A stretch of 32,599 bases of DNA from an uncultured Pseudomonadota bacterium (GCA_903918705.1 CAIXFP010000343.1:1-32599); one strand, 5' to 3'. Positions 12,434 through 29,211 are shown, counted from the stretch's first letter. The notes: generated from the letters alone by a model not told the origin. Numbers and translations are program-made.

Positions 12434-12610
12434 ATGGATTTACTCCATGAAACAGCAAGGTATTTGATTATTGTCGGGGCATTTTCCGCCGTTGCCTTAT
12501 TGGCCATGAGTGGTGTGCATGGGCCCAAACCGCGCAGCAGAATTTATTGGAACAAACTATTGGCTCTATGGAGTCGCAACGGAGAAAAGCATGAAAAATC
12601 TGTCTACTGA
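12434..12610 (+). CDS. Candidate 58-aa single-TM small protein (speculative)
   Basis: A strong SD (AAGGAG) lies 5 nt before the ATG. MDLLHETARYLIIVGAFSAVALLAMSGVHGPKPRSRIYWNKLLALWSRNGEKHEKSVY. It overlaps the yqjD-like start by 20 nt in another frame. Third-position GC is low, and no homology was recognised. Confidence 0.25.
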   Translation: MDLLHETARYLIIVGAFSAVALLAMSGVHGPKPRSRIYWNKLLALWSRNGEKHEKSVY

Positions 12611-12905
12611 AGTCACCAGCGAACAATTGCTTGCCGACTTCAATGTCGTGCTCGCGGACGCGCAAGCACTCTTGCTGGCAACCGCCAACCAGGGCGGCGA
12701 GAAACTGGCCGAGGTACGTGCCAAGGCGGAGGAATCCATTCGAGTGGTCAAGACCAGGATGCTGGAATCCCAGGCGGACTTGCTAGTGAAAACCCGCGCC
12801 GCCGCCAAGGCCACCGACGTGTATGTCCATGAAAACCCCTGGAATGCCATCGGCGTCAGCGCCGGCCTGGGCCTGCTGGTCGGCTTCCTCATCGGCCGCC
12901 GCTAG
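12591..12905 (+). CDS. DUF883 / ElaB-YqjD-YgaM family membrane-anchored ribosome-binding protein
   Basis: 104 aa from the ATG at 12591 (GGAG upstream). C-terminal signature VHENPWNAIGVSAGLGLLVGFLIGRR. Confidence 0.88.
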   Translation: MKNLSTEVTSEQLLADFNVVLADAQALLLATANQGGEKLAEVRAKAEESIRVVKTRMLESQADLLVKTRAAAKATDVYVHENPWNAIGVSAGLGLLVGFLIGRR

Positions 12906-13643: not shown

Positions 13644-14725
13644 ACGACAACCCCCTGCACGCACTCAAGGAACTGGGCCAGCACCTCTGGCTCGACAACC
13701 TCTCCCGCGCCCTGCTTCAGGAAGGCACCCTGCAACGCCTGATAGTGGAAGACGGCATCGACGGCATCACCTCCAATCCCGCCATCTTCCAGAAAGCCAT
13801 CGTCGGCAGCCCCTGGTACCGCGCCGACCTGGAGCGCCTGCGCGGCGCCGGCCTGGAACCCGAGGCGCGTTACGAAGCGCTGGCCATCCCCGACGTGCAG
13901 GCGGCCTGCGACATGCTGCTGCCGACCTACGTGGCCAGCGCCGGCGAGGCCGGCTACGTCAGCCTGGAAGTTTCGCCTGCCCTGGCCCACGACACCGCCG
14001 GCACCCTGGACGCGGCGCTGCGCCTGCGCCAGGCGGTGGTGCGTGACAACCTGCTGATCAAGGTGCCGGCCACACCCGCCGGCGTGCTGGCCTTCGAACA
14101 ACTGACCGCCGCCGGAGTGCGGACCAACGTCACCCTGATCTTCTCCCTGGCCCAGTACGAGGCCGTGGCCCAGGCCTATCTGCGCGGGGCGCAACGCTGG
14201 CTCGACGCGGGTGGCGATGCCCAGTCGCCACGCGCAGTGGCCAGTGTGTTCCTGTCCCGGGTCGACACCCTGGTGGACCAGCGCCTCGCGGCCATCGGCT
14301 CGACCCCGGCCCAGGCCCTCCAGGGCAAGACCGGCGTGGCCCTGGCCAAATGCTGCCACCAGCGTTACCTGGAACTGTTCCATGGCCCCGAGTTCGCAGC
14401 CCTGGCCCTGGCCGGCATGCGCCGCCAGACACCCCTGTGGGCCAGCACCGGCACCAAGAATCCGGCCTACAGCGATGTGCTCTACGTGGAAGCCTTGATC
14501 GGCAAGGAATCCATCAACACCCTGCCGGACGCCACCCTGGCGGCGTTCCGCGACCACGGCCGCGTCGGCGACACCCTGGGCGAAGGCCTGGCGGAGGCGC
14601 AACTCCAACTCGCTGCCCTGGCTGGACTGGGCATCGACCTGGATGAAGTAGGAGACACCTTGCAGGTGGATGGCCTGCGCATATTCGCCCAGGCCTATGA
14701 CAAGTTGCTCGCGGCGGTGATGTGA
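13640..14725 (+). CDS. tal: Transaldolase (long, about 360-aa type)
   Basis: 361 aa from the ATG at 13640 (AGGAG upstream; ATGA overlap with the yqjK-like stop). Motifs: LWLDNLSR, GITSNPAIFQKAI, LIKVPAT (Schiff-base Lys context), NVTLIFS, SVFLSRVD. Confidence 0.9.
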   Translation: MNDNPLHALKELGQHLWLDNLSRALLQEGTLQRLIVEDGIDGITSNPAIFQKAIVGSPWYRADLERLRGAGLEPEARYEALAIPDVQAACDMLLPTYVASAGEAGYVSLEVSPALAHDTAGTLDAALRLRQAVVRDNLLIKVPATPAGVLAFEQLTAAGVRTNVTLIFSLAQYEAVAQAYLRGAQRWLDAGGDAQSPRAVASVFLSRVDTLVDQRLAAIGSTPAQALQGKTGVALAKCCHQRYLELFHGPEFAALALAGMRRQTPLWASTGTKNPAYSDVLYVEALIGKESINTLPDATLAAFRDHGRVGDTLGEGLAEAQLQLAALAGLGIDLDEVGDTLQVDGLRIFAQAYDKLLAAVM

Positions 14726-14842
14726 ATGCCGTCCTAACGCTTAACCAGGACATCCACAGACTCAATGTCTGTCTGCCTCACGCTGAAAAGTCTTCAGAGC
14801 ACCCCGTCGTCACTTTCCGCCATCTGATCAGGAGTACACACC

Positions 14843-14974
14843 ATGTCCAAAAGCCAACATTCCAACAAGGAAGCCAAGAAGCATTCCTTACACACCGACA
14901 AGGAGAAAAAAGCGGCCAAACAGGCCAAAAAGCACGCGGGGGATCCGGTTCCCCTGATCGTCAAGCCTGTCTGA
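14843..14974 (+). CDS. 43-aa lysine-rich small protein (paralogue A), absent from the ORF track
   Basis: MSKSQHSNKEAKKHSLHTDKEKKAAKQAKKHAGDPVPLIVKPV. AGGAG lies 7 nt upstream. It shares 36 of 43 residues with the ORF at 27157-27288, and most nucleotide differences between the two fall at synonymous third positions. Confidence 0.75.
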   Translation: MSKSQHSNKEAKKHSLHTDKEKKAAKQAKKHAGDPVPLIVKPV

Positions 14975-15228
14975 GACCCGCCTCGGTCAGATATGTCCGG
15001 AATGAGCGGGTAGACATCGGCGCTGGCTAAAGCCTGATTGCACTTGCTCCAGGTGTGGCTTCCGAAGATTCCGGACTCATTTGAATAGGTTTGCCCCATG
15101 GCCCTGGTCATGACGGCCGACGAGGAGTCTGTTATCCGAAATTAGGCACTAATTGCCAAAGTAGGGGTTGAAAAATTCAATCTCATGAGGCTTGTTCGAG
15201 AAAGCCTTTTATGGTTTGTAAATTTATA

Positions 15229-15244
15229 TGTGTGGAAGCGTACA
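15229..15244 (+). promoter_or_regulatory. Candidate Crp/Fnr-type operator (box 7)
   Basis: TA-TGTGT-GGAAGC-GTACA-GAC. It matches box 6 at 17 of 19 nt. A TATAAT hexamer lies at 15281-15286. It sits in the AT-rich leader about 330 nt upstream of the second PEP-CTERM gene. Confidence 0.35.
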
Positions 15245-15571
15245 GACATCACCCATGGGGGTTGCCAAACTACCTTCTCCTATAATTGCCGCAGCATTGT
15301 GTTACCCGCACAACGGTGACGGCTATGACCATGGCCTTGATTGAATATTTAATCTTTCAGTGGGCCTGGTTTCGGTAGGAAGTAGCGGCATTGCAGGTTT
15401 GTCTCGTGCAAATGTCATTTTTTCAATCAGTAATTGTGGTTTTCATATTCATCCCGCTGCCATAAAGCCATTCCGGCATTCAAACCTGCATCACGAAATG
15501 GCGTCCTTGTTCCATCAGGCTGCATGAAAAGGCTCCGCACATTTCCGTGGCATTCCACAAGGAATATCGTT

Positions 15572-16276
15572 ATGAAACGAAGACTTGTATTGACCTCCAC
15601 TCTGGCCGCTTTGTTTTCGGCTGGCTCCGCAAACGCATTGATCATCGATGATTTTTCCGTAACGCAACCTAACGTCTACATCACCGGTCCCGCGCCCCAA
15701 TCGTCATTCGGCCTTATTCAAGCTGGCAGCACCAGTGACATCATCGGTGGATCCCGACAAACCGACGTTGCTTTGTACGCGGGTAATGCAGCCGCCGATG
15801 TGAATGTCCGGGTCGTGAGCGGCGTGCTCGACGTCAATGATTCGGTGAGTGCCGCTACCGAGGTCGTCTTGATTTGGGATGCCAACGGCGCGGGTTTGGG
15901 AAATGTCGATCTGTTGGCGGGCGGCGCCTCCGGAATTTACCTCGCCTTTCCGACCGCGATGGATCATGCGCTGAAACTGAAATTCGATATTACCGATTTC
16001 GGCACTGCAACCACCGCGACACATAGTATTACCTTTCCCATTGGTTCACAGGGCGCTGATTTCTTCTTCTCATTCAGCGATTTCACCAATCTCTCGGCGC
16101 TATCATCCGCGGATTCCATCAAAATGACCCTGGACTCCACGACCCCAGGTCTTGACGCAAATCTTGACTTGATTGAAACCCGCAGCGCACCACCCGGCAA
16201 CGTACCTGAACCCGGCACTGTCGGCCTGCTTGGCCTTGGCCTTCTGGGTCTTGGCGCGGCGCGGCGCAAGCAATAA
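15572..16276 (+). CDS. PEP-CTERM sorting-domain protein (unknown N-terminal domain)
   Basis: 234 aa from the ATG at 15572 (AAGGAA upstream). Signal peptide MKRRLVLTSTLAALFSAGSANA. C-terminus VPEPGTVGLLGLGLLGLGAARRKQ. Confidence 0.85.
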   Translation: MKRRLVLTSTLAALFSAGSANALIIDDFSVTQPNVYITGPAPQSSFGLIQAGSTSDIIGGSRQTDVALYAGNAAADVNVRVVSGVLDVNDSVSAATEVVLIWDANGAGLGNVDLLAGGASGIYLAFPTAMDHALKLKFDITDFGTATTATHSITFPIGSQGADFFFSFSDFTNLSALSSADSIKMTLDSTTPGLDANLDLIETRSAPPGNVPEPGTVGLLGLGLLGLGAARRKQ

Positions 16277-16615
16277 ACGGGATCGTATAAATTGGATTTC
16301 CCGGCGGGAATGGGTTGAATCAAATGAGGGCGAGTTGATCCATTCCCGTAAATAAAGACATGAAGCCGTTATCGTGGAAGGCGTGTCCAATCTCTCAATG
16401 TCGAAGGTCGTGACTTGGGCAATACGCGACGTGCCCGGCCGCCGGCAATGAAATCGGAAACTCAGTCCCGCCGCAATCCAGCATGGCAACGCATGCTTCC
16501 ACTGGCCTGGCGGCTCCAGGATTGATGGGCACGTACCACGGTTTTCATGAAATCTGTTTGAGGTCCGAGTCAGTTCCCCATGATCGTTCTGGGAATAATC
16601 ACGGACCCACCGCAT

Positions 16616-17008
16616 TCATTCCTGTACCAATAGCCCGGCCAATTCCAGATATTCCGGGAATCGTCCATCAACACTGACCAGTTGTGCTTGATGTTCAACG
16701 GCGGTGGCAATGATGATGCGATCAACCGGGTCTTTGTGATGTTCAGGCAACGAGACTGCACGCTCGGCGATGGCCCTTGATACCGGAATAATCGCAACAC
16801 CATATGCCTCGATCCGATCGAGCCAGTCGGCGACCGGCAACTGGAGAGCAATTCGTCCGTGGGACACAAGCCACGCCATTTCCCAGCACGTCATTGCCGA
16901 GACGGCCAAAGATGGAGCCGTTTCGATGGCGTCTATCTGCCGTGGCCCAAGCTTGTCCGGTGTGCGATTGGCCCACCAGTAGAGTGAGTGTGTGTCGAGG
17001 ATAAGCAT
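16616..17008 (-). CDS. vapC: PIN-domain type II toxin (VapC family)
   Basis: 130 aa. MLILDTHSLYWW.. (Asp5), CWEMAW (Glu), HKDPVDRIIIATA (Asp). Its ATG overlaps the upstream antitoxin stop (TAATG). Confidence 0.88.
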   Translation of the reverse strand: MLILDTHSLYWWANRTPDKLGPRQIDAIETAPSLAVSAMTCWEMAWLVSHGRIALQLPVADWLDRIEAYGVAIIPVSRAIAERAVSLPEHHKDPVDRIIIATAVEHQAQLVSVDGRFPEYLELAGLLVQE

Positions 17009-17229
17009 TAGGCCAACGCTTTCCAGTCGCTTTCCGGCGGGCCGTTGAGGATGTCACCTTTTTCTTCTCCCATCCCCGCCAGCTCGGGCGGTGGCGAGCG
17101 GCGTCCGGTGGGCTTGGCGGATTCCCAAAGGACGATAACGCGAGCACGTGCTGCATGATCAGGGAGGGCTGCGTCCTCGATGACAAGACGATGGTTGGCA
17201 ATGGGTGCCGTCGTTTCAAGGGCCAACAT
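17008..17229 (-). CDS. Type II antitoxin partner of VapC (family not resolved)
   Basis: 73 aa from the ATG at 17229 (GGAGA upstream). 1-nt overlap with vapC. C-terminal tail GDILNGPPESDWKAL. The 109-aa track ORF is a 5' extension. Confidence 0.7.
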   Translation of the reverse strand: MLALETTAPIANHRLVIEDAALPDHAARARVIVLWESAKPTGRRSPPPELAGMGEEKGDILNGPPESDWKALA

Positions 17230-17435
17230 GGGCGTATCTCCTTCCAGCTTGTCTTGAAGAATGTTTCCGGTTGATTGTCCCGGTTCCATTACAAGCGATA
17301 GTTTAACGGTAACGACCTGGTGTAGTCGGAGGAGCAACCAGCCCGCGTGGGCAAATAAGCCGGCGGTTTCTTGCCGACGTTATCCGCCGCATGCCAAACA
17401 TCCGGCGGAAGGCGCGATAAAGCCGCTTTTCCGCC

Positions 17436-20400
17436 CTACACCTTCACCATCACTGTGTGTTCGTGACGGTCGTCCAGCAGAGGAATCGCCTGCCCTTCCA
17501 GCGCCACCCCATCCAGCGTCAGGCCCACCGCACCCCCTTGTACCACGGCGATGTGATAGACCGTCTCGCGATACCGGTAATGCACCGTGAACCCCGGCCA
17601 GTGGCCGGGCAGGCAGGGTGCGACATGCAACTTGTCCACTTCCAGGCGCAATCCCAGCAGCGATTCCAATATCAGCCGGTACATCCAGCCGGCCGAGCCG
17701 GTGTACCAGGTCCAGCCGCCGCGCCCGGTGTGGGGGGCGACGGCGTAGACATCCGCCGCCATGACGTAGGGCTCCACCTTGTACACCGCGATGGCGTCCG
17801 GCGATTTCGCATGGTTGGCGGGGTTGATCAGGGTGGTGAGTTCCCAGGCGCGGCGGCTGTCGCCCTGGGCGGCGTAGGCCATGGCGGCCCAGATGGCGGC
17901 GTGGGTGTACTGGCCGCCGTTCTCCCGCACGCCGGGGACGTAGCCCTTGATGTAGCCCGGGTCCATGTCCGTCTGGTCGAAGGGCGGGTCGAGCAACTGG
18001 ATGAGGCCCGCGTCGCGCCGCACCAGGTGCTCGTCCAGGGACTGCATGGCGCGGCGGGCACGTTCGCGGTCGGCGACCCCGGACAGCACCGACCAGCTTT
18101 GCGCGATGGAGTCGATCCAGCATTCCACGTTGCCGGCGGAGCCCAGGGGGGTGCCGTCGTCGAACCAGGCGCGGCGGTACCAGGCGCCGTCCCAGGCGTG
18201 CTGTTCCAGGTTCTCGCCCAGGTGCGCGGCTTCCGCCAGGCAGAAGTCGGCGGATTCGGGGTCGCCGTGGCCGCGCGCCAGGACGGCGAACTGGCGCAGC
18301 ACTTCATGCAGGAAGAAGCCCAGCCACACGCTTTCCCCCTTGCCGCCCACGCCCACCCGGTTCATGCCGTCGTTCCAGTCACCGGAGCCCATCAGGGGCA
18401 GGCCGTGTTCGCCGTAGCGCAGGCCGTGGCGGAGTGCCCGCACGCAGTGCAGGTAGAGGCTCTCCGAGGTGGTGGAACGTCCCGGCAGGTCGAAGTAGTC
18501 GTCGTCGTCCGGGCTGAGCAGGCGGCCTTCCAGGAACGGGACCGCTTCCTCCAGCACGCCGCTGTCGCCGCTGCCCAGCACGTAGCGGCAGGTGGCCAGG
18601 GCCAGCCACAGGTAGTCGTCGGAACAGTGGGTGCGCACGCCGCGCCCGGCAGGCGGGTGCCACCAGTGCTGCACGTCGCCCTCGTGGAATTGCCGCCCGG
18701 CGCACAGCAGCAATTGCGCCCGCAGCAGGCCGGGTTCGCTGTGCAGCAGGGCCATGGCGTCCTGCAACTGGTCGCGGAAGCCGAAGGCGCCACCGGACTG
18801 GTAGTAGCCGCTGCGCGCCCACATGCGGCAGGCCAGGGTCTGGTAGAGCAGCCAGCCGTTGCTGAGGACGTTGAGGGACTGGTCCGGCGTTTCCACCTGC
18901 ACCGCGCCCAGGGTGTGGTTCCAGTAGTGCCAGACGTCTTCCAGGGCCTGGCGCGCGGCTTCGCCACCGCGCGTGCGCTGCGCCAGGTGGTTGGCGTCCT
19001 CGCCCCCGGGTGTGCCGCCCACGCCGAGGCGGAACACGATCTCCCGCTCCTCGCCGTCAGCCAGGTCGAAGCCCACCTGCAGCGCGCCACAGGGGTCCAG
19101 GCCGCTGCCGGACTTGCCGGACAGGTGGGTGCGGCGTAGCGCCGCCGGGTTGGTCAGGCTGCCGTTGCGGCCGATGAATTCGGCGCGGTCGCAGGTGCCG
19201 GTGCGGTCGGCGACGTCCACGTCGAAGAAGGCGACCCGCCCGGGAAACTCGCCGTTGTAGGGGTTGCGGGCGTAGAGGGCGCCGCTGTACGGGTCCACCT
19301 CGGTGACCAGGTACATGGCGGATTTCGGCCGCAGGTCGCCCAGCACCCATTCCACATAGCCGGTGGCGGACAGCCGCCGCGGCCGCCCGGACCCGTTGCG
19401 CACTTTCAGTACCGAGAATTTCACCGCCGCGTCCAGCGCCACGTAGACCCACAACTCGGACTGGATGCCGGACTCGGCGTGCTCGAACACGCTGTAGCCG
19501 AAACCGTGGCGGCAGACGTAGGGGGTGGCGCCGCGCCGGGGCAGCGGCGTCGGCGACCAGAACTGGCCGGTTTCCTCGTCACGCAGGTAGAAGGCCTCGC
19601 CGCTCGGGTCGGAGACCGGATCGTTGAGCCAGGGGGTGAGGCGGAATTCGTGGGCGTTCTCGCTCCAGGTGTAGGCCTGGCCGCTCTCGGAGACCACGCT
19701 GCCGAACTGGGCGTTGGCCAGCACGTTGACCCAGGGCGCCGGGGTGAGCAGGTCCGGCGTGGTGGTGATGACGTACTCGCGCCCGTCCGGGGTGAAGCCG
19801 CCCAGGCCGTTGCCCAGGATCAGGTCGCGGACCGGCAGTGCGAAGGCCGCGGCCGCTTCGGGCCGCAGCGACTTGCCTGGCGCCAGGCGCGGCACCCGTG
19901 GTTCCAGTGCGTCGGGCCGCGTGAGCTGTTCCGCCAGGGTGCCCCGGCCGTCGCTCAGGATGATGCGGGCGACGGTCTGGAACAGGATGCGGTCTTCCTC
20001 GGAAATCTGTTCCGCCGAGCGGATGAAGATGCCGCCGGGCCGGTCGATGACCTGGGTTTCCAGGCCCACCGCCACCAGGCCCAGGATCTGGTCCTGCAAG
20101 GTCTGCCGATAGCCGGCCCGGTCCTCGTTCCAGATCACCAGGTCCACCGCCAGGCCCTTCAGGCGCCAGTAAGCGTGGGCCTGGATGAGCTGGCGCACCA
20201 GTTCGACATTGGCCAGGTCGGCGATGCGCACCAGGACGATGGGCAGGTCGCCGGAGATGGCATAGCCCCACAGACCGGACTGGCCGCGCCGGTTGCGTAG
20301 CAGCACGCCGGCGTCGGCGCGCAGGGCGGCGTGGGCGTAGATCACCGAGTTGGCCAGGCGGCCATAGAGCTGGGCGTCCGCCTCGCTGGCGTTGATCTGG

Positions 20401-23400
20401 CGCAGCACCACCTGGGCGTGGGTCCAGGCCAGTTCGAACACCCGGTCGGCCAGGCGGCGGTCGCGATATTTCTCCACCAGGGCCAGGGCGGCCGCGCGGC
20501 TGTCGCCGATACCGTAGACCAGGTCGATGCTGGCGGTCTGCTCCGGTTCCAGGGTGATGCTGCAGCGGATGGCCAGCATCGGGTCGAGCACCGAACCCTG
20601 GCTGCCGGAGAGCACGCCGTCCGCGTCCAGCGCCTGGGGTGCCGCGACATCACGGCCGCGGCCGAGAAAGCGGGCGCGATCGGTTTCGTAGGAAATCGCG
20701 TCGATGTCCGCATCATGGACGGCCAGCAGATGGAACATCCAGGGCGTCGCCTCGTCCCGGGAGCGGGGGCGGCGGGTACACAGCAGGGCCTGCTGCGGCG
20801 CGACGATCTCGGTCTGCACGAACAGGTTGCTGAACGCTGGATGCAGGGCGTCGGCGGCGGCGGGAGCCAGCACCACCTCGGCGTAGGTGGTGAGTTCGAT
20901 GGTGCGGCGGCTGGCACCGCGGTTGGTGATGCGGATCCGGCGCAGTTCGATGTCTTCTTCCGGGGAGACGACGATGTCGGTGTGGGTGTCGAAATCGAAC
21001 GCCTGGCCACGATCGCGGCGGCGGAATTCGGCCCGCCCTTCCGAGAAGATGGCCTCGTAGTGTTCCGTTTGGCGCAGGGTGGGCTGGTGGGCGGTGGACC
21101 AGGTGGTGCCGCTTTCCGTATCGCGAAGGTAAGCGAAACTGCCCCAGGCATCGCGGGTGCCGTCCTCGCGCCAACGGGTGACGGCCAGGTCGCGCCAGCG
21201 GCTGTAGCCGCCGCCGGCGTGGCTGATCATGACGTGATAGCGGCCGTTGGAGAGCAACTGCACTTCCGGGGTCGCGCTGTCGGGCTGGGTCAACACCCGG
21301 ATCGGCATTTCCGGACTGTCGACGCCGGCCTGGCTGGCGTTCAGTTCGGCGTTGTGGGTATGGAAGGCCGTGGCACGGGGGATGCGTTCCTGCAGCAACA
21401 ACAGAGTGGCCTGCAACAGCGAGTCGGCCGCGAAGCGTTTCTGCATCGGCCGGTCCAGCAGCAGATAGGCCAGGGCCAGCAGGCTCATGCCCTGGTGGTG
21501 CGCCATGTAGGAGCGCACCAGGGCGTGGGATTCGCCGCGCCGCTGCCGCGCCGGGGTGTAGTCGATGGCCTCGTAGAAGCCGAACCAGCCTTCCGCGCCC
21601 AGGGCGGCGAGGCGCTCCAGGTTCTCGCAGGCGGCCTCCGGCGCCACCATCAGGGCCATCACCGTGGCATAGGGCGCCACCACCAGGTCCTCGGCGAGGC
21701 CGCGCTTCAGCCCCAGGCCGGGCACGCCGAAGGCGCGGTACTGGTAGTTGAGTTGCACGTCCACCGCGTTGTAGCCGGATTCCGACATGCCCCAGGGCAG
21801 GCCGCGCTGCTGGCCGTACTCGATCTGCCGCGCCACCGCCGAGCGCATGGTCTGGTCGAGCAGGGTGTGGTCGTAGTTGGGCATCACCAGTTGCGGCATC
21901 AGGTACTCGAACATGGAGCCGCTCCAGGACAGCAGGATCGGCTCGCCGCCGCTGCGGGTGAGCAGGCGCCCCAGGGCGAACCAGCTCTCCTGGGGCAACT
22001 GGCCCTGGGCGATGGCGACGAACACGGTGAGGCGCGCTTCCGAGGCGAGGAGATCGTAGTAACTGCTGTCGCGCCGCCGCTCGTCCACGTTGTAGCCGAT
22101 GGCCAGCAGGCGCGCGGCCTTGTCGTAGAGGAAGCCGTATTCCATCTCGGCCAGTTCGCCGGCCTGCCGGGCGCGTTGCCGGAGGGCGGCGATGCGCACC
22201 CGGGCGCGCTCGCTGCCCAGTTCGATACGGCGGTCGAGTTCGCCCCGCCAGGCATCCCCGGCCGGTGTGGCGCCAAGGCTGGCGGGGCCGGGCGCCAATT
22301 CGGCCAGGGCGCGCAGGGTCGGGATGACGTCGATTTCGGGGGGCGCTGCGAGGCCGTCCGGGGCCGCTGGCATGCTGAGCCAGGGCGCGAGAAAGACCAG
22401 CTCGTCCCGGACCGCCCGGCATTGCTGCGCCAGGGCACGCAGCCACCAGCACGCCTGGCTCTCGGGCACCTGCCCCAGGTTCTCGTGCATGGCCTCGGCG
22501 GCCTGGCTCAACTGCTCGAGCAGGCGCCAAACCGCCGCAAGGGTGGTGGGCCGGAGCGCGTTCGCCGCAGCGTACTGGGTGCGGAATTGCGCCAGTTGGG
22601 CTGGGAATGTGCCACCCCCGGTGGCACCCGCGGCTTCCTCCAGTATCCCCAGGATGTCGCCCAGGCCGTCCAGCCAGCGCGGTGCCAGGATGGGCCGGTC
22701 GATGAGGGAGGTGAGACCGGGACGCAGGGTCAGCAGGTGGCCCGCCAGGTTGCCGCTGTCCACGGTCGAGACATAGGCCGGGTGCAGCGGCGCCAGCGTC
22801 TGGGTGTCGTACCAGTTGTAGAAATGGCCGTGGTACCGGTCCAGGCCCGCCATGGTGTCCAGGGTGTGGCCGCAGCGCTCGAGCAGCTGCTCGGCGGTGA
22901 GGTAGCCGAAGTCGTGGGCGGACAGGTAGGCCAGCAACGCCAGGCCCATGTTGGTGGGGGACGTGCGGTGGGCCAGGGCGCCGGTGCGATATTCCTGATA
23001 GTTGTCCGGGGGCAGCCAGTGGTCCTCCGGGCCGACGAAGGTCTCGAAGAAGGCCCAGGTCTTGCGTGCGATGCGGCCGAGGAACCGGCTCTGGTCTCCG
23101 CTCAGGCGAGCTTCGCGGCGAGCCAGCGGGCGGCTCAACCACCAGGCGACGGCGGGGGACACCAGCCACAGGATCAGGATGGGGGCGGCCACAGGCAACG
23201 CGGCCGGCACCACCGCCGCCAGGTAAATCGCGGTGGCGGCCGCCAGCAGCGGGGCGAACCCCATGGTGCGGAAGGCGGCGGCCAGGTCGTTGCGGCTGGC
23301 CAGTTCCTGGTCGCCGGAAGGATTCCATTCCAGCAGCCGTTGGTGCGATACCCCCAGTCGCCAGAGGGTGCGCAGGATCGCATCCAGGCTGTAACCCGCC

Positions 23401-26075
23401 TCGTGGGGCAGGGTCACCAGGGCAAACAGCGCCTGGATGCCGCGCAAGCCGGTGGCGTGGGCGATGGCGGCCAGGTGCTGGCCCAATCGCATCTCGTCCG
23501 GTTTGCGCAGGAGATCGTGCAGGCTGGCCAGCAGCGGCGGAATCAGGAGCACGCCGAGCAGCGCCAGGGTCCATGGCAGGGGCGCGGTGGACGCGGTCCA
23601 GCCCAGCACCAGGAGCAGGGTCAACGCCGCCGGCACCAGGCTGCGGCGCAGGTTGTCGAACAGTTTCCAGCGCGCCAGCCAGGACAGCGGATTCCGGCCG
23701 CGGCGCCGGTCGGGGCCGCGCAGCCACGGCAGCAGCCAGCCGATGAGCTGCCAATCGCCGCGGATCCAGCGGTAGCGGCGGTTCACGTCGGCACCGTAGC
23801 GGGCCGGGTATTCCTCGTACAACTGCACGTCGCTCAACAGCCCGGCGCGCACGTAACAGCCCTCCAGCAGGTCGTGGCTGAGGATGCGGTTCTCGCGGAA
23901 ACGCCCCTGCAGCGCCTGCTCGAAGGCGGCCACGTCGTAGATGCCCTTGCCGATGAAGGAGCCTTCCCCGAAGGCGTCCTGGTACACGTCGGAGACGGCG
24001 CGGGTGTATGGGTCGATGCCCGGCTCGCCGCTGTTCAGGCGGGCATAACGCGACAGGGTGGCGCCGGGCAGGCTCACGCTCACCCGCGGCTGCAGGATGC
24101 CGTAGCCGGCCACCACCCGGCCTTGGGACGCGTCATAACGCGGTCGATTGAGGGGGTGTGCCATGGTGCCGACGCATTCCCGGGCGGCGTCGCGCGGCAA
24201 CTGGGTGTCGGTGTCCAGGGTGATGACGTAGCTCACCCCGACCAGCAGCGCGGTGTCGCCCACCAGCAGGGAGAATCCGTCACGTTTGCCTTCGCGCAGC
24301 AGGGCGTTGAGGTCGGCCAGCTTGCCGCGCTTGCGCTCGTAGCCCATCCAAAGCCGGTCATGGGGGTTCCAGCGGCGCGGCCGATGCAGCAGGAAAAAGG
24401 CGTCGTGGCCGTCTACCCCATAGCGCGTGTTCAGGGCTTCGATGCGCGCCCGGGCCCGTTCCAGCAGCGCTATGTCCTCGGGCAAGGTTTCCGCGGCCGC
24501 GTCGCGCAGGTCGGTCAACAGGGCGAAAAACAGGTTCGCATCGCGGTTGGCCAGGAAGCGGACTTCCAGCGCCTCGGCCAGGCTGTCGATGTTGCGCGGG
24601 CTGGCGAGCATGGTGGGGACCACCACCAGGGTGCGGAATTCGGCCGGGATGCCGGCGGAATAATCCATGCACGGCAGGGCATGAGGCGACGCCAGCAGGG
24701 TGGCCAGCCAGTTCACCAGGGCGGAGGCGAGCTGGCCGCTGGCCACCAGGGCGAGCAGTCCCAGGGGGAGCAGCGTCCAATGCGCCCAGCCGGCTCCACG
24801 CACTTCGGCCAGGAAAGCGGCGGCCAGGAGCGTGGTGAGCAGGGTGATCGCGCCCAGGTACAGGGGCAGTGGCGAGTCCCCTGCGCCGCGGCGCAGGCGC
24901 GCGGCAAGGGGCGGACGGGCGCCCAGGGCCCGTTCCAACTGGAGGCGTCCGCGGTCGATCAGGTAGTAGCCGACGTGGGCGGTCCGGTCGCCCACGCCGT
25001 TGTTGTCCGCGCCGGACCGGGCCAGTTCGATGGCGCGGGCGGCTACCGTGTCCTCGTTGAACAGGCTCGACTTCGCCACCTGTTCGACCACGTGGCGGTA
25101 GTGGTCGCGGCTGGCGAAATCCATGCCGGCATAGGCCGAACCCGGGTCCGTGCGCAGGGTGCGTTCCACCAGGCTCAAGGATTCGACGAACTCGCGCCAG
25201 TCCATGGTGCCCAGGAAGCGCAGGCTGCCGATGCTGTTGCTGATGGAGACCTGGTCGGCGGCCTGGTGCTGGTTGCCCATGCGCACCGACTGTTCGATGC
25301 TCGCCCCCGATTCGGCCAGTTGCTGTTCGATCCAGGTCAATGGCAGGGCCAGGGTGGGGCCTTGCCCCTGGAGCCGGCGCGCCAGTTCCGAGACGAACGG
25401 CGGCGACATGGGCGGCTGCGAGCGGGCCATGTCGGCGATGACCAGGATCAGATTCTTCGGGGCCTGGCGGGCGACTTCGCTCAACTTGTCCGCCCAGTAG
25501 ACCGCCAGGTCCCGATCCGCGCGGCCATGGGCGATGCGCACCGCGACCCGGCGCAGGTTCTCGATCAGGGCCAGGCGCAGCATGATCGGAATGGCCCACA
25601 ACTCGCCCAGGCGCAGCGGGCTGACCGTCTGGTAGGCGGCGACGAAGCGGCTCAGGCTGTCCGGGTCGACCCGGCCGTCGCCATGGGCGATGGTTTCCAG
25701 GGCGATGTCGTAGACCCGCGGCAACCCATGCGACGCACCCCCGGCAAGGCTGGGCAATTCCCGGCTGTAGCCCTTGGGCAGGTGGCGCCGGGCGGTGCGA
25801 ATCTGTTCCTCCACCAGGTAGAAGTTGTCCAGCAGCCATTCCCCGGCCGGCGTGATGCGCTGTTTCGCCGTCACCGCCCTGGTCAACTGGTCGCAGGTCT
25901 CGACCAGTACCGCCTCGTTGGCCGCCAGCCGCGCCAGCAGCGGGTCCGGCACCCGGCGCGGCGCCAGGCGGTGGGTGCCGGCGAGGCGCACGCCGTGCTG
26001 GGCCATCTGGTCGCTGCTGAACAACTCCGCCCGTAGCGGCGGCGCCTCGACGCAGTCTTTGCCCGGCGCGCTCAT
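17436..26075 (-). CDS. ndvB: Cyclic beta-1,2-glucan synthase (NdvB/ChvB/Cgs type; GT84 + cyclisation region + GH94 phosphorylase-like domain)
   Basis: About 2879 aa. TM segments flank a glycosyltransferase region (ITLDTDTQLPRDAA, RRYRWIRGDWQ). A C-terminal GH94-like region follows (GGAFGFRDQLQD, MGSGDWNDGMN, IWAAMAYA). The start was set at MSAPGKD..PLRAELFSSDQMAQHG (ATG at 26075). An ATG at 26207 is an alternative but adds 44 non-conserved-looking residues. Confidence 0.93.
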   Translation of the reverse strand: MSAPGKDCVEAPPLRAELFSSDQMAQHGVRLAGTHRLAPRRVPDPLLARLAANEAVLVETCDQLTRAVTAKQRITPAGEWLLDNFYLVEEQIRTARRHLPKGYSRELPSLAGGASHGLPRVYDIALETIAHGDGRVDPDSLSRFVAAYQTVSPLRLGELWAIPIMLRLALIENLRRVAVRIAHGRADRDLAVYWADKLSEVARQAPKNLILVIADMARSQPPMSPPFVSELARRLQGQGPTLALPLTWIEQQLAESGASIEQSVRMGNQHQAADQVSISNSIGSLRFLGTMDWREFVESLSLVERTLRTDPGSAYAGMDFASRDHYRHVVEQVAKSSLFNEDTVAARAIELARSGADNNGVGDRTAHVGYYLIDRGRLQLERALGARPPLAARLRRGAGDSPLPLYLGAITLLTTLLAAAFLAEVRGAGWAHWTLLPLGLLALVASGQLASALVNWLATLLASPHALPCMDYSAGIPAEFRTLVVVPTMLASPRNIDSLAEALEVRFLANRDANLFFALLTDLRDAAAETLPEDIALLERARARIEALNTRYGVDGHDAFFLLHRPRRWNPHDRLWMGYERKRGKLADLNALLREGKRDGFSLLVGDTALLVGVSYVITLDTDTQLPRDAARECVGTMAHPLNRPRYDASQGRVVAGYGILQPRVSVSLPGATLSRYARLNSGEPGIDPYTRAVSDVYQDAFGEGSFIGKGIYDVAAFEQALQGRFRENRILSHDLLEGCYVRAGLLSDVQLYEEYPARYGADVNRRYRWIRGDWQLIGWLLPWLRGPDRRRGRNPLSWLARWKLFDNLRRSLVPAALTLLLVLGWTASTAPLPWTLALLGVLLIPPLLASLHDLLRKPDEMRLGQHLAAIAHATGLRGIQALFALVTLPHEAGYSLDAILRTLWRLGVSHQRLLEWNPSGDQELASRNDLAAAFRTMGFAPLLAAATAIYLAAVVPAALPVAAPILILWLVSPAVAWWLSRPLARREARLSGDQSRFLGRIARKTWAFFETFVGPEDHWLPPDNYQEYRTGALAHRTSPTNMGLALLAYLSAHDFGYLTAEQLLERCGHTLDTMAGLDRYHGHFYNWYDTQTLAPLHPAYVSTVDSGNLAGHLLTLRPGLTSLIDRPILAPRWLDGLGDILGILEEAAGATGGGTFPAQLAQFRTQYAAANALRPTTLAAVWRLLEQLSQAAEAMHENLGQVPESQACWWLRALAQQCRAVRDELVFLAPWLSMPAAPDGLAAPPEIDVIPTLRALAELAPGPASLGATPAGDAWRGELDRRIELGSERARVRIAALRQRARQAGELAEMEYGFLYDKAARLLAIGYNVDERRRDSSYYDLLASEARLTVFVAIAQGQLPQESWFALGRLLTRSGGEPILLSWSGSMFEYLMPQLVMPNYDHTLLDQTMRSAVARQIEYGQQRGLPWGMSESGYNAVDVQLNYQYRAFGVPGLGLKRGLAEDLVVAPYATVMALMVAPEAACENLERLAALGAEGWFGFYEAIDYTPARQRRGESHALVRSYMAHHQGMSLLALAYLLLDRPMQKRFAADSLLQATLLLLQERIPRATAFHTHNAELNASQAGVDSPEMPIRVLTQPDSATPEVQLLSNGRYHVMISHAGGGYSRWRDLAVTRWREDGTRDAWGSFAYLRDTESGTTWSTAHQPTLRQTEHYEAIFSEGRAEFRRRDRGQAFDFDTHTDIVVSPEEDIELRRIRITNRGASRRTIELTTYAEVVLAPAAADALHPAFSNLFVQTEIVAPQQALLCTRRPRSRDEATPWMFHLLAVHDADIDAISYETDRARFLGRGRDVAAPQALDADGVLSGSQGSVLDPMLAIRCSITLEPEQTASIDLVYGIGDSRAAALALVEKYRDRRLADRVFELAWTHAQVVLRQINASEADAQLYGRLANSVIYAHAALRADAGVLLRNRRGQSGLWGYAISGDLPIVLVRIADLANVELVRQLIQAHAYWRLKGLAVDLVIWNEDRAGYRQTLQDQILGLVAVGLETQVIDRPGGIFIRSAEQISEEDRILFQTVARIILSDGRGTLAEQLTRPDALEPRVPRLAPGKSLRPEAAAAFALPVRDLILGNGLGGFTPDGREYVITTTPDLLTPAPWVNVLANAQFGSVVSESGQAYTWSENAHEFRLTPWLNDPVSDPSGEAFYLRDEETGQFWSPTPLPRRGATPYVCRHGFGYSVFEHAESGIQSELWVYVALDAAVKFSVLKVRNGSGRPRRLSATGYVEWVLGDLRPKSAMYLVTEVDPYSGALYARNPYNGEFPGRVAFFDVDVADRTGTCDRAEFIGRNGSLTNPAALRRTHLSGKSGSGLDPCGALQVGFDLADGEEREIVFRLGVGGTPGGEDANHLAQRTRGGEAARQALEDVWHYWNHTLGAVQVETPDQSLNVLSNGWLLYQTLACRMWARSGYYQSGGAFGFRDQLQDAMALLHSEPGLLRAQLLLCAGRQFHEGDVQHWWHPPAGRGVRTHCSDDYLWLALATCRYVLGSGDSGVLEEAVPFLEGRLLSPDDDDYFDLPGRSTTSESLYLHCVRALRHGLRYGEHGLPLMGSGDWNDGMNRVGVGGKGESVWLGFFLHEVLRQFAVLARGHGDPESADFCLAEAAHLGENLEQHAWDGAWYRRAWFDDGTPLGSAGNVECWIDSIAQSWSVLSGVADRERARRAMQSLDEHLVRRDAGLIQLLDPPFDQTDMDPGYIKGYVPGVRENGGQYTHAAIWAAMAYAAQGDSRRAWELTTLINPANHAKSPDAIAVYKVEPYVMAADVYAVAPHTGRGGWTWYTGSAGWMYRLILESLLGLRLEVDKLHVAPCLPGHWPGFTVHYRYRETVYHIAVVQGGAVGLTLDGVALEGQAIPLLDDRHEHTVMVKV

Positions 26076-26101
26076 GCCGCCCGGGTACGCCTTGGAAAAA
26101 A

Positions 26102-26118
26102 GTGTCCGAATCCGACAC
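26102..26118. promoter_or_regulatory. Near-perfect 17-bp palindrome in the glucan synthase leader
   Basis: GTGTC-CGAATCC-GACAC lies 27-43 nt upstream of the ATG at 26075. A related TGTCACGAATCGAC lies at 26642-26655, just upstream of the divergent gene's ATG (26676). Confidence 0.3.
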
Positions 26119-26231
26119 CAATGACCGATGAGCTTCGTTTTGCCCCCTTTCCAAGCTGGTCCCAAATTGTTCTCCCGACCGCTCAAGGGGCGGTGGTTGC
26201 GACACACGGCGGGACGCCAGTGTGTGGATGA

Positions 26232-26400
26232 CTAGCAGCCTGTCGGACTTCGGTCGTCGATAGCGAGAAAGGGCCCCAGCGAGGCCAGTTTTTGCCGGAT
26301 TCGCCGCCGCATAGTCGAACTATGGGGCAAGAAGCCGGTGAAAAATGGACCGCTGCGGTCGTTTCGCAGCCGACGATTCCAAAGTCCGACAGGCTGCTAG
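26232..26400. repeat. 169-bp MITE-like / highly structured element with perfect 19-bp terminal inverted repeats
   Basis: CTAGCAGCCTGTCGGACTT (26232-26250) is the exact reverse complement of AAGTCCGACAGGCTGCTAG (26382-26400). Internal extra pairings: tcgtcg/cgacga, catagt-cga-actatg and gctgcg-gtcgttt-cgcagc. No ORF is present. Confidence 0.6.
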
Positions 26401-26675
26401 GATCGGAGTGCCCCGGGCGGTTGGACCCGGACGCCCGGGAGCCATTCCCGGGACAGCGCTGAACAGGTTTGGGCGGCGGTTCCACTCGACCTTGGTTGCC
26501 TACGCCCGCATGCAGGTTACAGGTGATTGGCGGCGGGGTTGCGCCGGCGGTCGACAGGTAACCGGTTGCGATAATACTTGAGTAATTATGTCGGACAAGG
26601 TCTATAAGGTTCTGGTGTGATGCGGCAATCTTGCCGGCATCTGTCACGAATCGACCTTTTTCAAAGGCAGGCAAC

Positions 26676-27092
26676 ATGCGCAACCTCCATATCGACTACC
26701 AAGGTGACGCCCTCAATTTCCAGAGCGCCAGTCTCCTCGCCAAAGGCCTGGCCCGGGACAACCAGATGCAGGACCCCACCATCATGGCCTGGCACCAGAG
26801 CGGCGAAGAAGCCGCGACGCCGTTCTACGACGGCGCCGATCCGGATTCCTGGTGGGCCAAGTACGGCGCCGGTAACGGTGGCAAGCTGGAGGTCTGCATT
26901 GGTGACGACTACCAGTTCATCCTGATGGACGCACGCGGCTACGAGACCCTGGGCGAGATGCCTCTGCGCAATCGCTCCGATGGCCACGGCAAGGAATATC
27001 TCTGCTACACGCCGATGCTCGGCAAGGCCACTGACAAGCCCACGGCGGAAGCCTGCATCGAACTGGACGGCTGGGCGGCGGACCAATACTGA
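26676..27092 (+). CDS. Hypothetical protein (138 aa); N-terminal half resembles AF1514-type small proteins (from memory, unverified)
   Basis: ATG at 26676: MRNLHIDYQGDALNFQSASLLAKGLA..DPTIMAWHQ..WWAKYGAGNGGKLEVCIGDDYQFILMD. Divergent from the glucan synthase gene. A hairpin, atcggcgc-N11-gcgccgat, follows the stop. Confidence 0.6.
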   Translation: MRNLHIDYQGDALNFQSASLLAKGLARDNQMQDPTIMAWHQSGEEAATPFYDGADPDSWWAKYGAGNGGKLEVCIGDDYQFILMDARGYETLGEMPLRNRSDGHGKEYLCYTPMLGKATDKPTAEACIELDGWAADQY

Positions 27093-27156
27093 GTGCCGTG
27101 ATCGGCGCGCGCCCAGGCGGCGCCGATATCCTTCAACCTGAATAGAGGAAATCATC

Positions 27157-27288
27157 ATGATCAAAGGGCAACACTCCAATAAGGAAGCGAAAAAACATTC
27201 CCTTCTGACCACCAAGGAAAAGAAGGCGGCCAAGCAGGCCAGGAAACATGCCGGCGACCCGGTCCCCTTGATCGTCAAGGGCTCCTGA
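27157..27288 (+). CDS. 43-aa lysine-rich small protein (paralogue B), absent from the ORF track
   Basis: MIKGQHSNKEAKKHSLLTTKEKKAAKQARKHAGDPVPLIVKGS. GAGGAA lies upstream. Paralogue of 14843-14974. A hairpin, cgggagc-N11-gctcccg (27307-27331), follows. Confidence 0.75.
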   Translation: MIKGQHSNKEAKKHSLLTTKEKKAAKQARKHAGDPVPLIVKGS

Positions 27289-27362
27289 GCAGGGGTTCCG
27301 CGCCGTCGGGAGCAGGTCTGCACCGCTCCCGCCTAATGGTCATGCAGGGTTCGGCCTGCGTC

Positions 27363-27378
27363 TGTGTGCCAGCGTACA
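27363..27378 (+). promoter_or_regulatory. Candidate Crp/Fnr-type operator (box 6)
   Basis: TGTGT-GCCAGC-GTACA-GAC, within the extended imperfect palindrome TCTGTGTGCCAGCGTACAGA. It lies 130-145 nt upstream of the histidine kinase ATG. Confidence 0.45.
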
Positions 27379-27507
27379 GACCAGCGCAGCCCGATCCGCG
27401 ATGCTCAGAACGAGGTTGGCAGCCTGCTTCGGGCGGCCAGATTCGCAGTTCACCGGTTCGGCAAACCGGTCCACCGACTTCGTTCCAGGTTTTCACGGAT
27501 AACACGC

Positions 27508-29211
27508 ATGCCCATCACAGTCCCCTTCCCCGCGCCTGCCGACGTTATCGGCAATGGGGAGAGCGCCTCAGAAGCCCTGCGCCAGGAGGGGTTGCTGAAG
27601 ACCGGAGCCTTGCAGACCGCGATTCTCACCAGCGCCAATTTCTCCATCATCGCCACCGACGAGAAAGGCATCATCCAGTTGTTCAACGTCGGCGCCGAGC
27701 GCCTGCTGGGCTACCAGGCCGCCGAGGTGGTGAACAAGATCAGCCCCAGCGACATGCACGATCCAGTGGAAGTGAGGGCGCGCGCCCAGGCCCTCAGCCT
27801 GGAACTCGACACCCCCATCGCGCCGGGCTTCGAGGCCCTGGCCTTCAAGGCTTCGCGTGGAATCGAGGATGTTTATCAACTCACCAAGATTCGCAAGGAT
27901 GGCAGCCGCTTCCCAGCCATCGTGTCGATCACGGCATTGCGCGACGACTACGGCGAAATCATCGGCTATCTGCTGATCGGCACCGACAACTCGGTGCGCA
28001 AGCAGGTCGAGGAAAAACTGAACGAGGCCCTGGCTGCGGCGGAGAAGGCCAACCGGGCGAAGACCGATTTCCTCTCCGGCATGAGCCACGAATTGCGCAC
28101 CCCGCTCAATGCCATCCTGGGCTTCGCCCAGCTCATGGAATCCGGAACGCCGCATCCCACGCCGCCGCAGCAGCGCAACCTGGACCAGATCCTCAAGGCG
28201 GGCTGGTATCTGCTGGAACTGATCAACGAAATCCTCGACCTGGCGCTGATCGAGTCGGGCAAGGTGACCTTGTCCCAGGAAGCGGTCTCCCTGGCAGAGG
28301 TCATGCTCGAGTGCCGCGCCATGATCGAGCCCCAGGCCCAGCAGCGCGGCATCGGCATGACCTTCCCGCACTTCGAGACCCCCTATTTCGTGAAGGCCGA
28401 CCGCACCCGAGTCAAACAGGTGCTGATCAACCTGCTGTTCAACGCCATCAAGTACAACCGGCCGGGCGGCACGGTGGCGGTGGAGTACAGCATCAGCCCG
28501 CCGAGTTCACTGCGCATCAGCGTGCGCGACACCGGGGCTGGCATCCCGCCGGAACTGATCGCGCAGTTGTTCCAGCCGTTCAATCGTCTTGGCCGCGAGG
28601 CCGGCAAGGAAGAGGGGACCGGCATCGGCCTGGTGGTGACCAAGCGGCTGGTGGAGTTGATGGGGGGCGTCATCGGCGTGGATAGCGCCGTCGGCGTGGG
28701 CAGCGTGTTCTGGTTCGAACTGGGCCTGACCAGCGCGCACCACCTCGCGGTCCACGAAGCCGGGCAGGCGGCGCTGGTCCACGCGCCATTGCCGGAGGGC
28801 ACGCCGCTGCGCACCCTGCTCTATGTCGAGGACAACCCGGCCAACCTGGAACTGGTGGAGCAGATCATCGCCCGCCGTCCCGATCTGCGCCTGCTCTCCG
28901 CCGCGGACGGCACGCTCGGCATCGAGTACGCCCGCGCCTACCTGCCCGAGGTGATCCTGATGGACATCAACCTGCCCGGCATCAGCGGGGTGGAAGCCAT
29001 GAAAATCCTGCGCGCCGACCCCCTGACCGCGCATATCCCCATCATCGCGCTCAGCGCCAACGCCCTGGCCCGGGACATCGAGAAGGCCCTGGCGGCCGGC
29101 TTTTTCAACTACCTGACCAAGCCGATCAAGGTCAACGCCTTCATGGAGGCGCTGGACGTGGCGATGCAGTTCGCCAAGGCCGCCCGCACGGCCGCCAAGG
29201 AGACGTCATGA
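27508..29211 (+). CDS. Soluble hybrid sensor histidine kinase (PAS - HisKA - HATPase_c - REC)
   Basis: 567 aa from the ATG at 27508; no TM segment. PAS (IIATDEKGIIQLFNVGAERLLGY). H-box SHELRTPLNAILGF. N-box LINLLFNAIKYN. G-boxes VRDTGAGIP and GTGIGLVV. Receiver (LLYVEDNP..ILMDINLPGISG..LTKP). Confidence 0.9.
   Translation: MPITVPFPAPADVIGNGESASEALRQEGLLKTGALQTAILTSANFSIIATDEKGIIQLFNVGAERLLGYQAAEVVNKISPSDMHDPVEVRARAQALSLELDTPIAPGFEALAFKASRGIEDVYQLTKIRKDGSRFPAIVSITALRDDYGEIIGYLLIGTDNSVRKQVEEKLNEALAAAEKANRAKTDFLSGMSHELRTPLNAILGFAQLMESGTPHPTPPQQRNLDQILKAGWYLLELINEILDLALIESGKVTLSQEAVSLAEVMLECRAMIEPQAQQRGIGMTFPHFETPYFVKADRTRVKQVLINLLFNAIKYNRPGGTVAVEYSISPPSSLRISVRDTGAGIPPELIAQLFQPFNRLGREAGKEEGTGIGLVVTKRLVELMGGVIGVDSAVGVGSVFWFELGLTSAHHLAVHEAGQAALVHAPLPEGTPLRTLLYVEDNPANLELVEQIIARRPDLRLLSAADGTLGIEYARAYLPEVILMDINLPGISGVEAMKILRADPLTAHIPIIALSANALARDIEKALAAGFFNYLTKPIKVNAFMEALDVAMQFAKAARTAAKETS

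Follow-up and report, generated by a model that had tools for sequence, protein, structure and literature searches.

In a 32,599-nt stretch of DNA from an uncultured Pseudomonadota bacterium (GCA_903918705.1, CAIXFP010000343.1:1-32599; hereafter the window, meaning the whole stretch at its full length), two paralogous genes encoding 43-residue, lysine-rich proteins lie on either side of ndvB, the gene of a very large cyclic glucan synthase. We find that both belong to a large, widespread and unnamed protein family whose genes recur beside ndvB. Our preferred reading, to which we assign a probability of roughly 0.5, is that these are stress-induced, basic, mostly disordered cytoplasmic proteins tied to a glucan/envelope stress module. 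The family is new as a family, although the general kind to which it belongs, small basic stress proteins, is known; new here are its sigma-S-type promoter element, a covarying 5′ hairpin and a linkage to ndvB in several geometries. The two window genes and their Shine-Dalgarno (SD) sequences are the following.

14843..14974, + strand: copy 1 (W1), a 43-aa lysine-rich protein, MSKSQHSNKEAKKHSLHTDKEKKAAKQAKKHAGDPVPLIVKPV
14830..14834, + strand: SD sequence of copy 1, AGGAG, 8 nt 5′ of the ATG
27157..27288, + strand: copy 2 (W2), the 43-aa paralog of copy 1, MIKGQHSNKEAKKHSLLTTKEKKAAKQARKHAGDPVPLIVKGS
27144..27149, + strand: SD sequence of copy 2, AGAGGA, 7 nt 5′ of the ATG

A first-pass annotation had proposed both open reading frames (ORFs), and their coordinates and translations proved to be exactly as it gave them, each ORF having the SD sequence that it had noted. 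Our codon-by-codon comparison reproduced the 36 of 43 residues reported as shared, at 75% nucleotide identity, and counted 18 synonymous codon differences, where about 17 had been claimed, alongside 7 non-synonymous ones. The differences are distributed 7, 6 and 20 over codon positions 1, 2 and 3, and the proportions of non-synonymous and synonymous differences according to Nei-Gojobori are 0.13 (pN) and 0.73 (pS, saturated), respectively. The description of the proteins as very basic, with a shared C-terminal tail, likewise held: copy 1 has an isoelectric point (pI) of 10.1 and a net charge of about +7 at a grand average of hydropathy (GRAVY) of −1.25, copy 2 a pI of 10.4 and a net charge of about +8, and both contain 10 to 11 lysines, lack cysteine, tryptophan, phenylalanine and tyrosine (GRAVY about −1.0 to −1.25) and carry the tail HAGDxVPLIVK. 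Only the label "unannotated" needs qualification, being correct for the ORF track of that annotation but not for public gene-call collections, in which both exact sequences are already present, albeit nameless. Neither protein has a transmembrane segment, PLIV being the sole hydrophobic run and the modeled helix polar, which sets them apart from small membrane proteins and type I toxins.

The similarity of the two copies is confined to the SD sequence and the ORF, extending from about 19 nt 5′ of the ATG to the stop codon. Residues H6, H14, S15 and P35 are derived and common to both. Copy 1 is closest to its ortholog, a 98%-identical protein on a Thiobacillaceae contig (L041; L numbers denote homologous loci), followed by the two copies to each other. 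By these relationships the copies are in-lineage paralogs, their synonymous sites nonetheless being saturated. Two copies within one locus were seen in the window only, every other locus being single-copy within its flanks; one Propionivibrio metagenome-assembled genome (MAG) has two copies on separate contigs.

Judged by how they vary among homologs, both window ORFs are genuine protein-coding genes under purifying selection, as the first-pass annotation had claimed. The sense frame is open in 35 of 35 distinct homologous loci, without a single stop, and in each of them starts with an ATG behind an AGGAG-type SD sequence. Across 528 pairs, mean pS was 0.77 and mean pN 0.25, with a median dN/dS of about 0.17 for the unsaturated pairs, and column entropy was 0.65, 0.56 and 1.23 bits at codon positions 1, 2 and 3. 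It is this roughly twofold higher entropy at third positions, together with the open frame and the low dN/dS, that points to purifying selection in the + frame. One could argue instead that a structured RNA or the longer antisense ORFs account for the conservation and that the small ORFs do not code for protein, since the window does hold such antisense ORFs (14794-15111 and 26661-27323) and a lone Rfam match, to Magnesium-II, lies antisense to copy 1. This match is, however, sub-threshold and at chance level (20.8 bits vs. a 40-bit cutoff, E = 0.14), and scans of the whole window and of five homologous loci, as well as a permissive scan around both copies, gave no gathering-level Rfam match. 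Of the 35 loci, just 25 keep the best antisense frame open, namely the frame that contains the long antisense ORFs of the window, and 6 to 18 do so for the other reading frames; no more than 22 of 67 loci have a long antisense ORF; the antisense ORFs match nothing in Pfam; and substitutions pile up at third positions of the sense frame. Regarding RNA structure, fold z-scores for both strands of both ORFs ranged from −0.6 to −1.7 relative to shuffled sequences and were not significant, and the predicted folds of the two copies differ. The non-coding explanation is thus contradicted and effectively excluded, leaving the antisense ORFs as mere mirrors of the sense similarity, as had been suggested.

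To delineate the family, we combined a word-indexed search of 5.8 billion proteins with a profile search that covered 1.84 billion representatives exhaustively, at a cut-off of E <= 0.001. The former returned 92 clusters at 90% identity, nearly all of 41 to 46 aa, all "hypothetical" and none with a Pfam domain; matches reached down to E = 1e-18, a similarity far beyond chance. The latter returned 897 clusters at the 50% identity level, in which longer matches turned out to be the same small ORF, wrongly extended at its N-terminus. P0369, a "cluster member" of 550 aa considered as a fusion, was rejected as an unrelated transporter. Family length is almost fixed at 40 to 46 residues, with the consensus MSKSQxSNKExKKQALLTPKEKKAAKQAKKHAGDxVPLIVKxS and invariant alignment columns M1, K13, E21, K23, K26 and K30. 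The window proteins can be aligned over their full length with 91 homologs, share the MSKxxxSNKExKK N-terminus and the KEKKAAK core, and with their HAGDxVPLIVK tail fall into the main subfamily; a second subfamily retains the first ~32 residues and has a tail of the type E-S-x-G-L-L/F.

Members from named genomes come mainly from Betaproteobacteria (Hydrogenophilales/Thiobacillaceae, Gallionellaceae, Iodobacter and Rhodocyclales, the latter including Propionivibrio, Azonexus, Zoogloea and Accumulibacter) and sulfur-oxidizing Gammaproteobacteria. Among Gammaproteobacteria as a whole, the family occurs in Chromatiaceae, Sedimenticolaceae and others, including truncated relatives in Psychrobacter; remoter relatives come from MAGs of Desulfobulbaceae and Bacteroidota. 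Cultured carriers include Iodobacter fluviatilis (WP_267896104.1) and strains of Thiobacillus or Sideroxydans. Entries such as WP_257212566.1, WP_267896104.1 and UniProt A0A011QLV3 are nameless "hypothetical proteins" in RefSeq and UniProt. Pfam and NCBIfam scans of both window proteins and a Pfam scan of all 93 aligned members gave noise only, and the best match of a PDB profile search was a low-complexity stretch of eL8 (E = 0.04), in agreement with the earlier failure to recognize a named family. Searches of plasmid and phage collections with tblastn gave no family match.

The family gene usually stands by itself, as a single-gene unit preceded by a strong ribosome-binding site. Upstream alignments revealed a near-invariant element, (C/G)GCCTATACT, in about 40% of loci (~28 of 67 loci other than the window), positioned either ~50 nt or ~106 to 128 nt 5′ of the ATG. 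In the latter, long-leader class, the element is followed by a sequence-conserved leader ending in TCCCTTCAACATGATCAGGAG. When both strands of 880 kb of fetched sequence were searched, 23 of 27 occurrences of the extended motif and 19 of 36 occurrences of its simple core, CTATA[CG]T, fell into the −140 to −35 window of a small gene, an enrichment of about 100-fold. A C at −13, preceding the −10 motif, is known as a sigma-S discriminator. CTATACT is the −10 motif of RpoS (sigma-S) (PMC11784136, PMC5650638), and the family element is identical to this consensus.

Another feature of the leader is a stable hairpin in the first ~25 nt after GCCTATACT, at the inferred 5′ end of the transcript, found at nine short-leader loci (L015, L016, L022, L023, L025, L027, L030, L053 and L058). 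Its stem covaries (GCACC/GGTGC, ACGTC/GACGT, CGCCG/CGGCG), and because its sequence varies with pairing kept, an RNA-level feature, for instance an mRNA-stabilizing 5′ stem-loop, would fit better than a protein operator; we consider it a candidate for such a stem-loop. For the long-leader subgroup, RNAalifold gave no consensus structure with all sequences and, for the seven best, only a weak and unconvincing one (−3.6 kcal/mol).

The window itself contains no match to GCCTATACT, even when one mismatch is allowed; that is, the element is frequent in the family without defining it. Two upstream features matter here.

14726..14842, + strand: spacer of 117 nt between the transaldolase stop codon and copy 1
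27101..27127, + strand: GC-rich hairpin, ATCGGCGC...GCGCCGAT, read from the sequence and lying in the 64 nt that separate the DUF5619 gene from copy 2

The spacer of copy 1 still weakly resembles the long leader found in homologs (CATCC..., GATCAGGAG), and the SD sequence of copy 1 is part of this conserved GATCAGGAG leader end. With neither GCCTATACT nor a predicted terminator in this spacer, copy 1 may plausibly be co-transcribed with the cluster upstream of it. In the spacer of copy 2, the hairpin is followed by the conserved leader motif TCCTTCAAC; the counterpart of copy 2 at a syntenic metagenome locus (L047) retains GGCCTATACT, in a longer spacer. From this comparison, both window copies have probably lost the canonical promoter and are co-transcribed with the genes upstream of them.

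The most specific clue to function comes from the neighboring genes. Loci had been retrieved solely by a peptide pattern of the small protein, which introduces no selection bias toward ndvB; flanking ORFs were then clustered, and tblastn with the window NdvB settled geometry and strand, the latter by the NdvB strand scoring about twice as high as its shadow. Many loci, as the clustering showed, have a large ORF beside the small gene that matches the ndvB region of the window. Four geometries were observed, in Beta- and Gammaproteobacteria and in one Desulfobulbaceae MAG. The small gene may be divergent from the 5′ end of ndvB, as for copy 2 (L013, L014, L017, L028, L033, L037, L047 and L050), with the DUF5619 gene between the two in L047, exactly in the order of the window. 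It may lie directly 5′ of ndvB on the same strand (L059, L062, L070, L069 and, in the Desulfobulbaceae MAG, L031), with gaps from 24 to ~800 nt; in L059, 24 nt separate its stop codon from the first in-frame ATG, and in L062 at most 72 nt. It also occurs directly 3′ of ndvB on the same strand (L051) or, in the arrangement of copy 1, as a convergent neighbor of the ndvB 3′ end (L055 and L056). The linked NdvB proteins are 48 to 80% identical to that of the window, showing that the loci are diverse. Altogether, 17 of 62 distinct small-protein sequences (27%) are linked to ndvB, where ~0.56% would be expected by chance on a generous estimate (binomial p ~3e-24); among members with at least 5 kb examined, the count is 10 of 36. 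The association with ndvB is therefore statistically robust, but it is facultative, and "same stress module" is better supported than "obligate subunit".

Genes typical of stress responses surround ndvB in other genomes, among them BON, CsbD, DUF3309, DUF3096, cold-shock, Crp and SOD genes. Signaling genes recur modestly near the small gene (GGDEF-EAL at six loci, kinase/regulator pairs at six, Crp at five), and PrkA/DUF444/SpoVR are found there as well. A gene for a DsrC-like small protein adjoins the small gene at four loci (L017, 3185-3613; L028, 3528-3899; L037, 3414-3785; L071, 1896-2336); it lies between ndvB and the small gene in the gammaproteobacterial L017, L028 and L037 and 3′ of the small gene in L071, where ndvB was not detected. 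The small-gene stop codon is in frame with ndvB in L059 (847-1009) and L062 (1081-1279), two cases that are not significant, although translational coupling or read-through would be conceivable. A literature search for ndvB together with RpoS returned only Pseudomonas reviews, which were not used.

Given the family alignment, AlphaFold2 models a single helix at residues 19 to 30 (the KEKKAAKQAKK core) between flexible tails. The window proteins probably fold on binding. Having neither a signal peptide nor a membrane segment, the small protein would stay in the cytoplasm. We envisage that it shares a stress module with the glucan synthase, is made on entry into stationary phase or upon osmotic or envelope stress, and acts as a small binding peptide. 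Its single basic helix would contact a negatively charged surface, and a partner would be docked by the hydrophobic tail, which is conserved as PLIVK and has GLL/GLF in its place in the second subfamily. As for the window, copy 2 would represent the recurrent arrangement divergent from ndvB and with DUF5619, and copy 1 a duplicate placed last in a stress cluster of DUF883, YqjE and transaldolase genes, both probably being read through from upstream genes.

Several observations weigh against tying the family to a stress module with ndvB. Of the members, 73% have no ndvB next to them in the flanks that were examined, and small-gene neighbors at such loci are heterogeneous (desaturase, solute-binding proteins, amidase, MlaE, SurA-like, Dus). 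In a reciprocal search, none of five ndvB-anchored loci had the small gene within ±10 kb; this small sample consisted of five NdvB N-terminal homologs of 64 to 78% identity on long contigs, with ENA accessions in one numeric series. The promoter argument has its own weak points: the nominal p-values of the motif enrichment, 1e-34 to 1e-57, are inflated by the motif having been defined after inspection of the data; the sigma-S consensus was defined in Escherichia and Pseudomonas; and about 60% of loci, both window copies included, lack GCCTATACT. In addition, the C-terminal tail is not conserved family-wide, AlphaFold confidence is only moderate (mean pLDDT 72), and the searchable literature, queried with accessions and locus tags of named members, does not mention any of them. 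We also note that in the ENA contigs L079 to L083, ndvB is split into two to six called genes, probably through assembly frameshift errors; such errors would also break small ORFs, so the reciprocal count could be depressed.

Two more specific functions compete with the stress-module reading. The small protein might be a dedicated partner of cyclic-glucan synthase (Cgs/NdvB), a stress-induced peptide that binds the large cytoplasmic part of the enzyme or the acidic membrane around it and tunes glucan synthesis, switching cyclic-glucan output at stationary phase or under osmotic stress. Its role would then be that of an accessory subunit, much like the small subunits of cellulose synthase. If true, this would explain why the small gene has repeatedly been kept beside ndvB, in varied orientations and across bacterial classes. 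Indeed, ndvB is the only specific recurrent neighbor, in four geometries and several classes and with near-operonic spacing in L059 and L062, and the conserved acidic residues E10 and E21 (both invariant in our comparison, E21 also as an alignment column) amid the lysines suggest, together with the hydrophobic tail, specific docking rather than a generic polycation. All soluble domains of Cgs are cytoplasmic (PMC10901819), which together with the lack of a known partner makes such an interaction physically possible. Yet the absence of any reported partner protein for the Agrobacterium Cgs (PMC10901819) also speaks against it, as do the reciprocal search, the many members away from ndvB and the ortholog of copy 1, which is coupled to DUF883 and lacks any ndvB within 10 kb. 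Nor did we find, on looking for it, an N-terminal feature of NdvB that separates enzymes linked to the small gene from unlinked ones. On balance, we regard direct switching of the synthase as a tentative and rather unlikely proposal.

About as likely is a stationary-phase factor that binds the ribosome or nucleoid, with adjacency to ndvB reflecting shared stress islands only. The model here would be Sra (RpsV, "S22"), a 45-residue, stationary-phase-induced, ribosome-associated protein of Escherichia coli, or else histone-like tails rich in lysine and alanine. Like Sra, the family proteins are very small, strongly basic and devoid of cysteines and aromatic residues, and come from a single-gene unit with sigma-S-type promoter logic. 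Small size, positive charge, disorder and the KEKKAAKQAKK motif would all suit such a role, as would the sigma-S-type promoter of the family, and ndvB neighborhoods are rich in assorted small stress genes. Moreover, copy 1 and its ortholog sit with DUF883, members of which in E. coli (YqjD, ElaB and YgaM) are stationary-phase ribosome-associated proteins. However, Pfam and PDB profile searches detect no sequence similarity of the family to Sra, to ribosomal proteins or to solved ribosome chains; its taxonomic range differs from that of Sra, which is also not known to have a link to a glucan synthase; and incidental adjacency would hardly place 27% of members beside one 8.7-kb gene in four geometries.

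Other stress-island proteins offer a further parallel. CsbD/YjbJ, KGG/YciG, DUF883 YqjD/ElaB and BON/OsmY are likewise small, hydrophilic and driven by stress promoters, and they cluster with the same kinds of genes, DUF883 beside copy 1 and CsbD and BON beside ndvB elsewhere. Still, the Pfam models of CsbD, KGG (YciG), DUF883 and BON match none of the 93 family members, DUF883 being the neighboring gene of copy 1 and not the small protein itself, and the family is shorter, far more lysine-rich and equipped with its own KEKKAAK core and hydrophobic tail. BcsR and BcsF of cellulose synthase offer another parallel, as tiny proteins encoded beside a giant membrane glycan synthase, sometimes near-operonically; they differ in sharing no homology with the family, which is linked to ndvB only facultatively (27% in one direction, 0/5 in the reverse). 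In its KK-AA-K composition, the central helix recalls the lysine/alanine-rich, histone-H1-like tails of bacterial nucleoid proteins (AlgP, Hc1 and the C-terminal tails of HU/Hlp), but the family has one short motif rather than long repeats and no attached DNA-binding domain, and in our comparison its acidic residues and C-terminal hydrophobic motif are invariant.

Proteins of fewer than 50 residues are routinely missed or left "hypothetical". Here, ~900 sequence clusters from environmental Beta- and Gammaproteobacteria (sulfur and iron oxidizers, Accumulibacter, Iodobacter) combine a selection signature, a stationary-phase-type promoter and a specific genomic partner, thus providing a testable entry into two poorly understood areas, the general stress response of non-model proteobacteria and the control of cyclic beta-1,2-glucan synthesis. 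Cyclic glucans are important in osmoadaptation, symbiosis and virulence, and we know of no regulator or partner of the synthase that makes cyclic beta-1,2-glucan. The family merits a Pfam or NCBIfam model for consistent annotation.

Around the two copies, the window is organized as follows.

12510..12905, + strand: DUF883 (YqjD/ElaB-like) gene, heading the cluster that ends in copy 1 and syntenic with L041
13292..14725, + strand: transaldolase-containing ORF directly 5′ of copy 1
15187..15208, + strand: terminator-like hairpin with a T-rich tail, 213 nt 3′ of copy 1, from a consensus scan only
17436..26165, − strand: ndvB, with a 2923-aa GT/GH94 product; the longest ORF runs to 26207
26631..27092, + strand: DUF5619 gene, divergent from ndvB and directly 5′ of copy 2

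Copy 1 is thus preceded by DUF883, a holin-X/YqjE-like protein and transaldolase, whose true start is probably later than 13292 given that the TAL_FSA match begins at residue 132. Between the copies lie a PEP-CTERM protein, a PIN (VapC) protein, NdvB and DUF5619, the latter with a promoter-like site upstream (26551-26578), and copy 2 is followed by a hybrid histidine kinase, a response regulator and a Crp-family regulator. In L041, the ortholog of copy 1 lies 10 nt 3′ of the DUF883 gene in the same Crp-DUF1003-...-DUF883 neighborhood, which makes the stress-gene context put forward in the first-pass annotation a reasonable one.

The same annotation had described the copies as direct repeats flanking the ndvB segment. 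Their direct orientation around ndvB, 12,314 nt apart, and their bracketing position stand, and together with the lower GC content (0.50 to 0.55) of the segment at positions 15 to 17 kb they could be taken to mark terminal repeats of a mobile or recently duplicated 12-kb ndvB block. A repeat search found only one substantial direct repeat in 13500-28800 (D1, 14824-14965/27138-27279, 75%), and no other long repeats flank the block. With DNA similarity limited to SD sequence and ORF, saturated synonymous sites and no family match on plasmids or phages, the copies are not boundary repeats. Furthermore, all other loci are single-copy within their flanks, and the contexts of the two copies recur separately, that of copy 2 in L047 and that of copy 1 in L041. 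A mobile block is contradicted by these data and, for all practical purposes, effectively excluded. What changes is the meaning of the bracketing: proximity to ndvB is not accidental but part of a recurrent, family-wide linkage, copy 2 keeping the ndvB-divergent arrangement and copy 1 sitting in the DUF883 stress cluster.

As a side observation, positions 15001-17000, which hold the PEP-CTERM protein and a PIN/VapBC-like pair, have a GC content of 0.50 to 0.55 as compared with 0.63 to 0.71 on either side; this segment was probably inserted later, between copy 1 and the ndvB 3′ end. The window also encodes, upstream of the DUF883 cluster, a collagen triple-helix-repeat protein and an ice-binding-like protein with a PEP-CTERM signal (8636-9556 and 11525-12355).

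Finally, the region upstream of ndvB is itself conserved, in the window (26076-26400, − strand) as well as in L013, L014, L017, L028, L033, L037, L047, L050 and L079. Its order is a covarying hairpin (CCGTTCgccGAGCGG and variants), the SD sequence GGGAGAA, a GTG or TTG start and the N-terminal peptide GPAWK, with ~170 nt of further conserved sequence (TCATCGTCAC...TGGTGTC..GCCAC) upstream. From the conserved SD sequence, start codon and peptide, ndvB of the window probably starts at the TTG at 26165 rather than at 26207. The region has no Rfam match and may constitute an undescribed ndvB leader. Within the ndvB-DUF5619 intergenic region, there is also a 22-nt inverted repeat (26232-26253/26379-26400) with 95% complementarity and arms 125 nt apart, the interior of which is partly self-complementary; the resulting ~170-nt hairpin could be an element akin to a miniature inverted-repeat transposable element (MITE) or a structured RNA.

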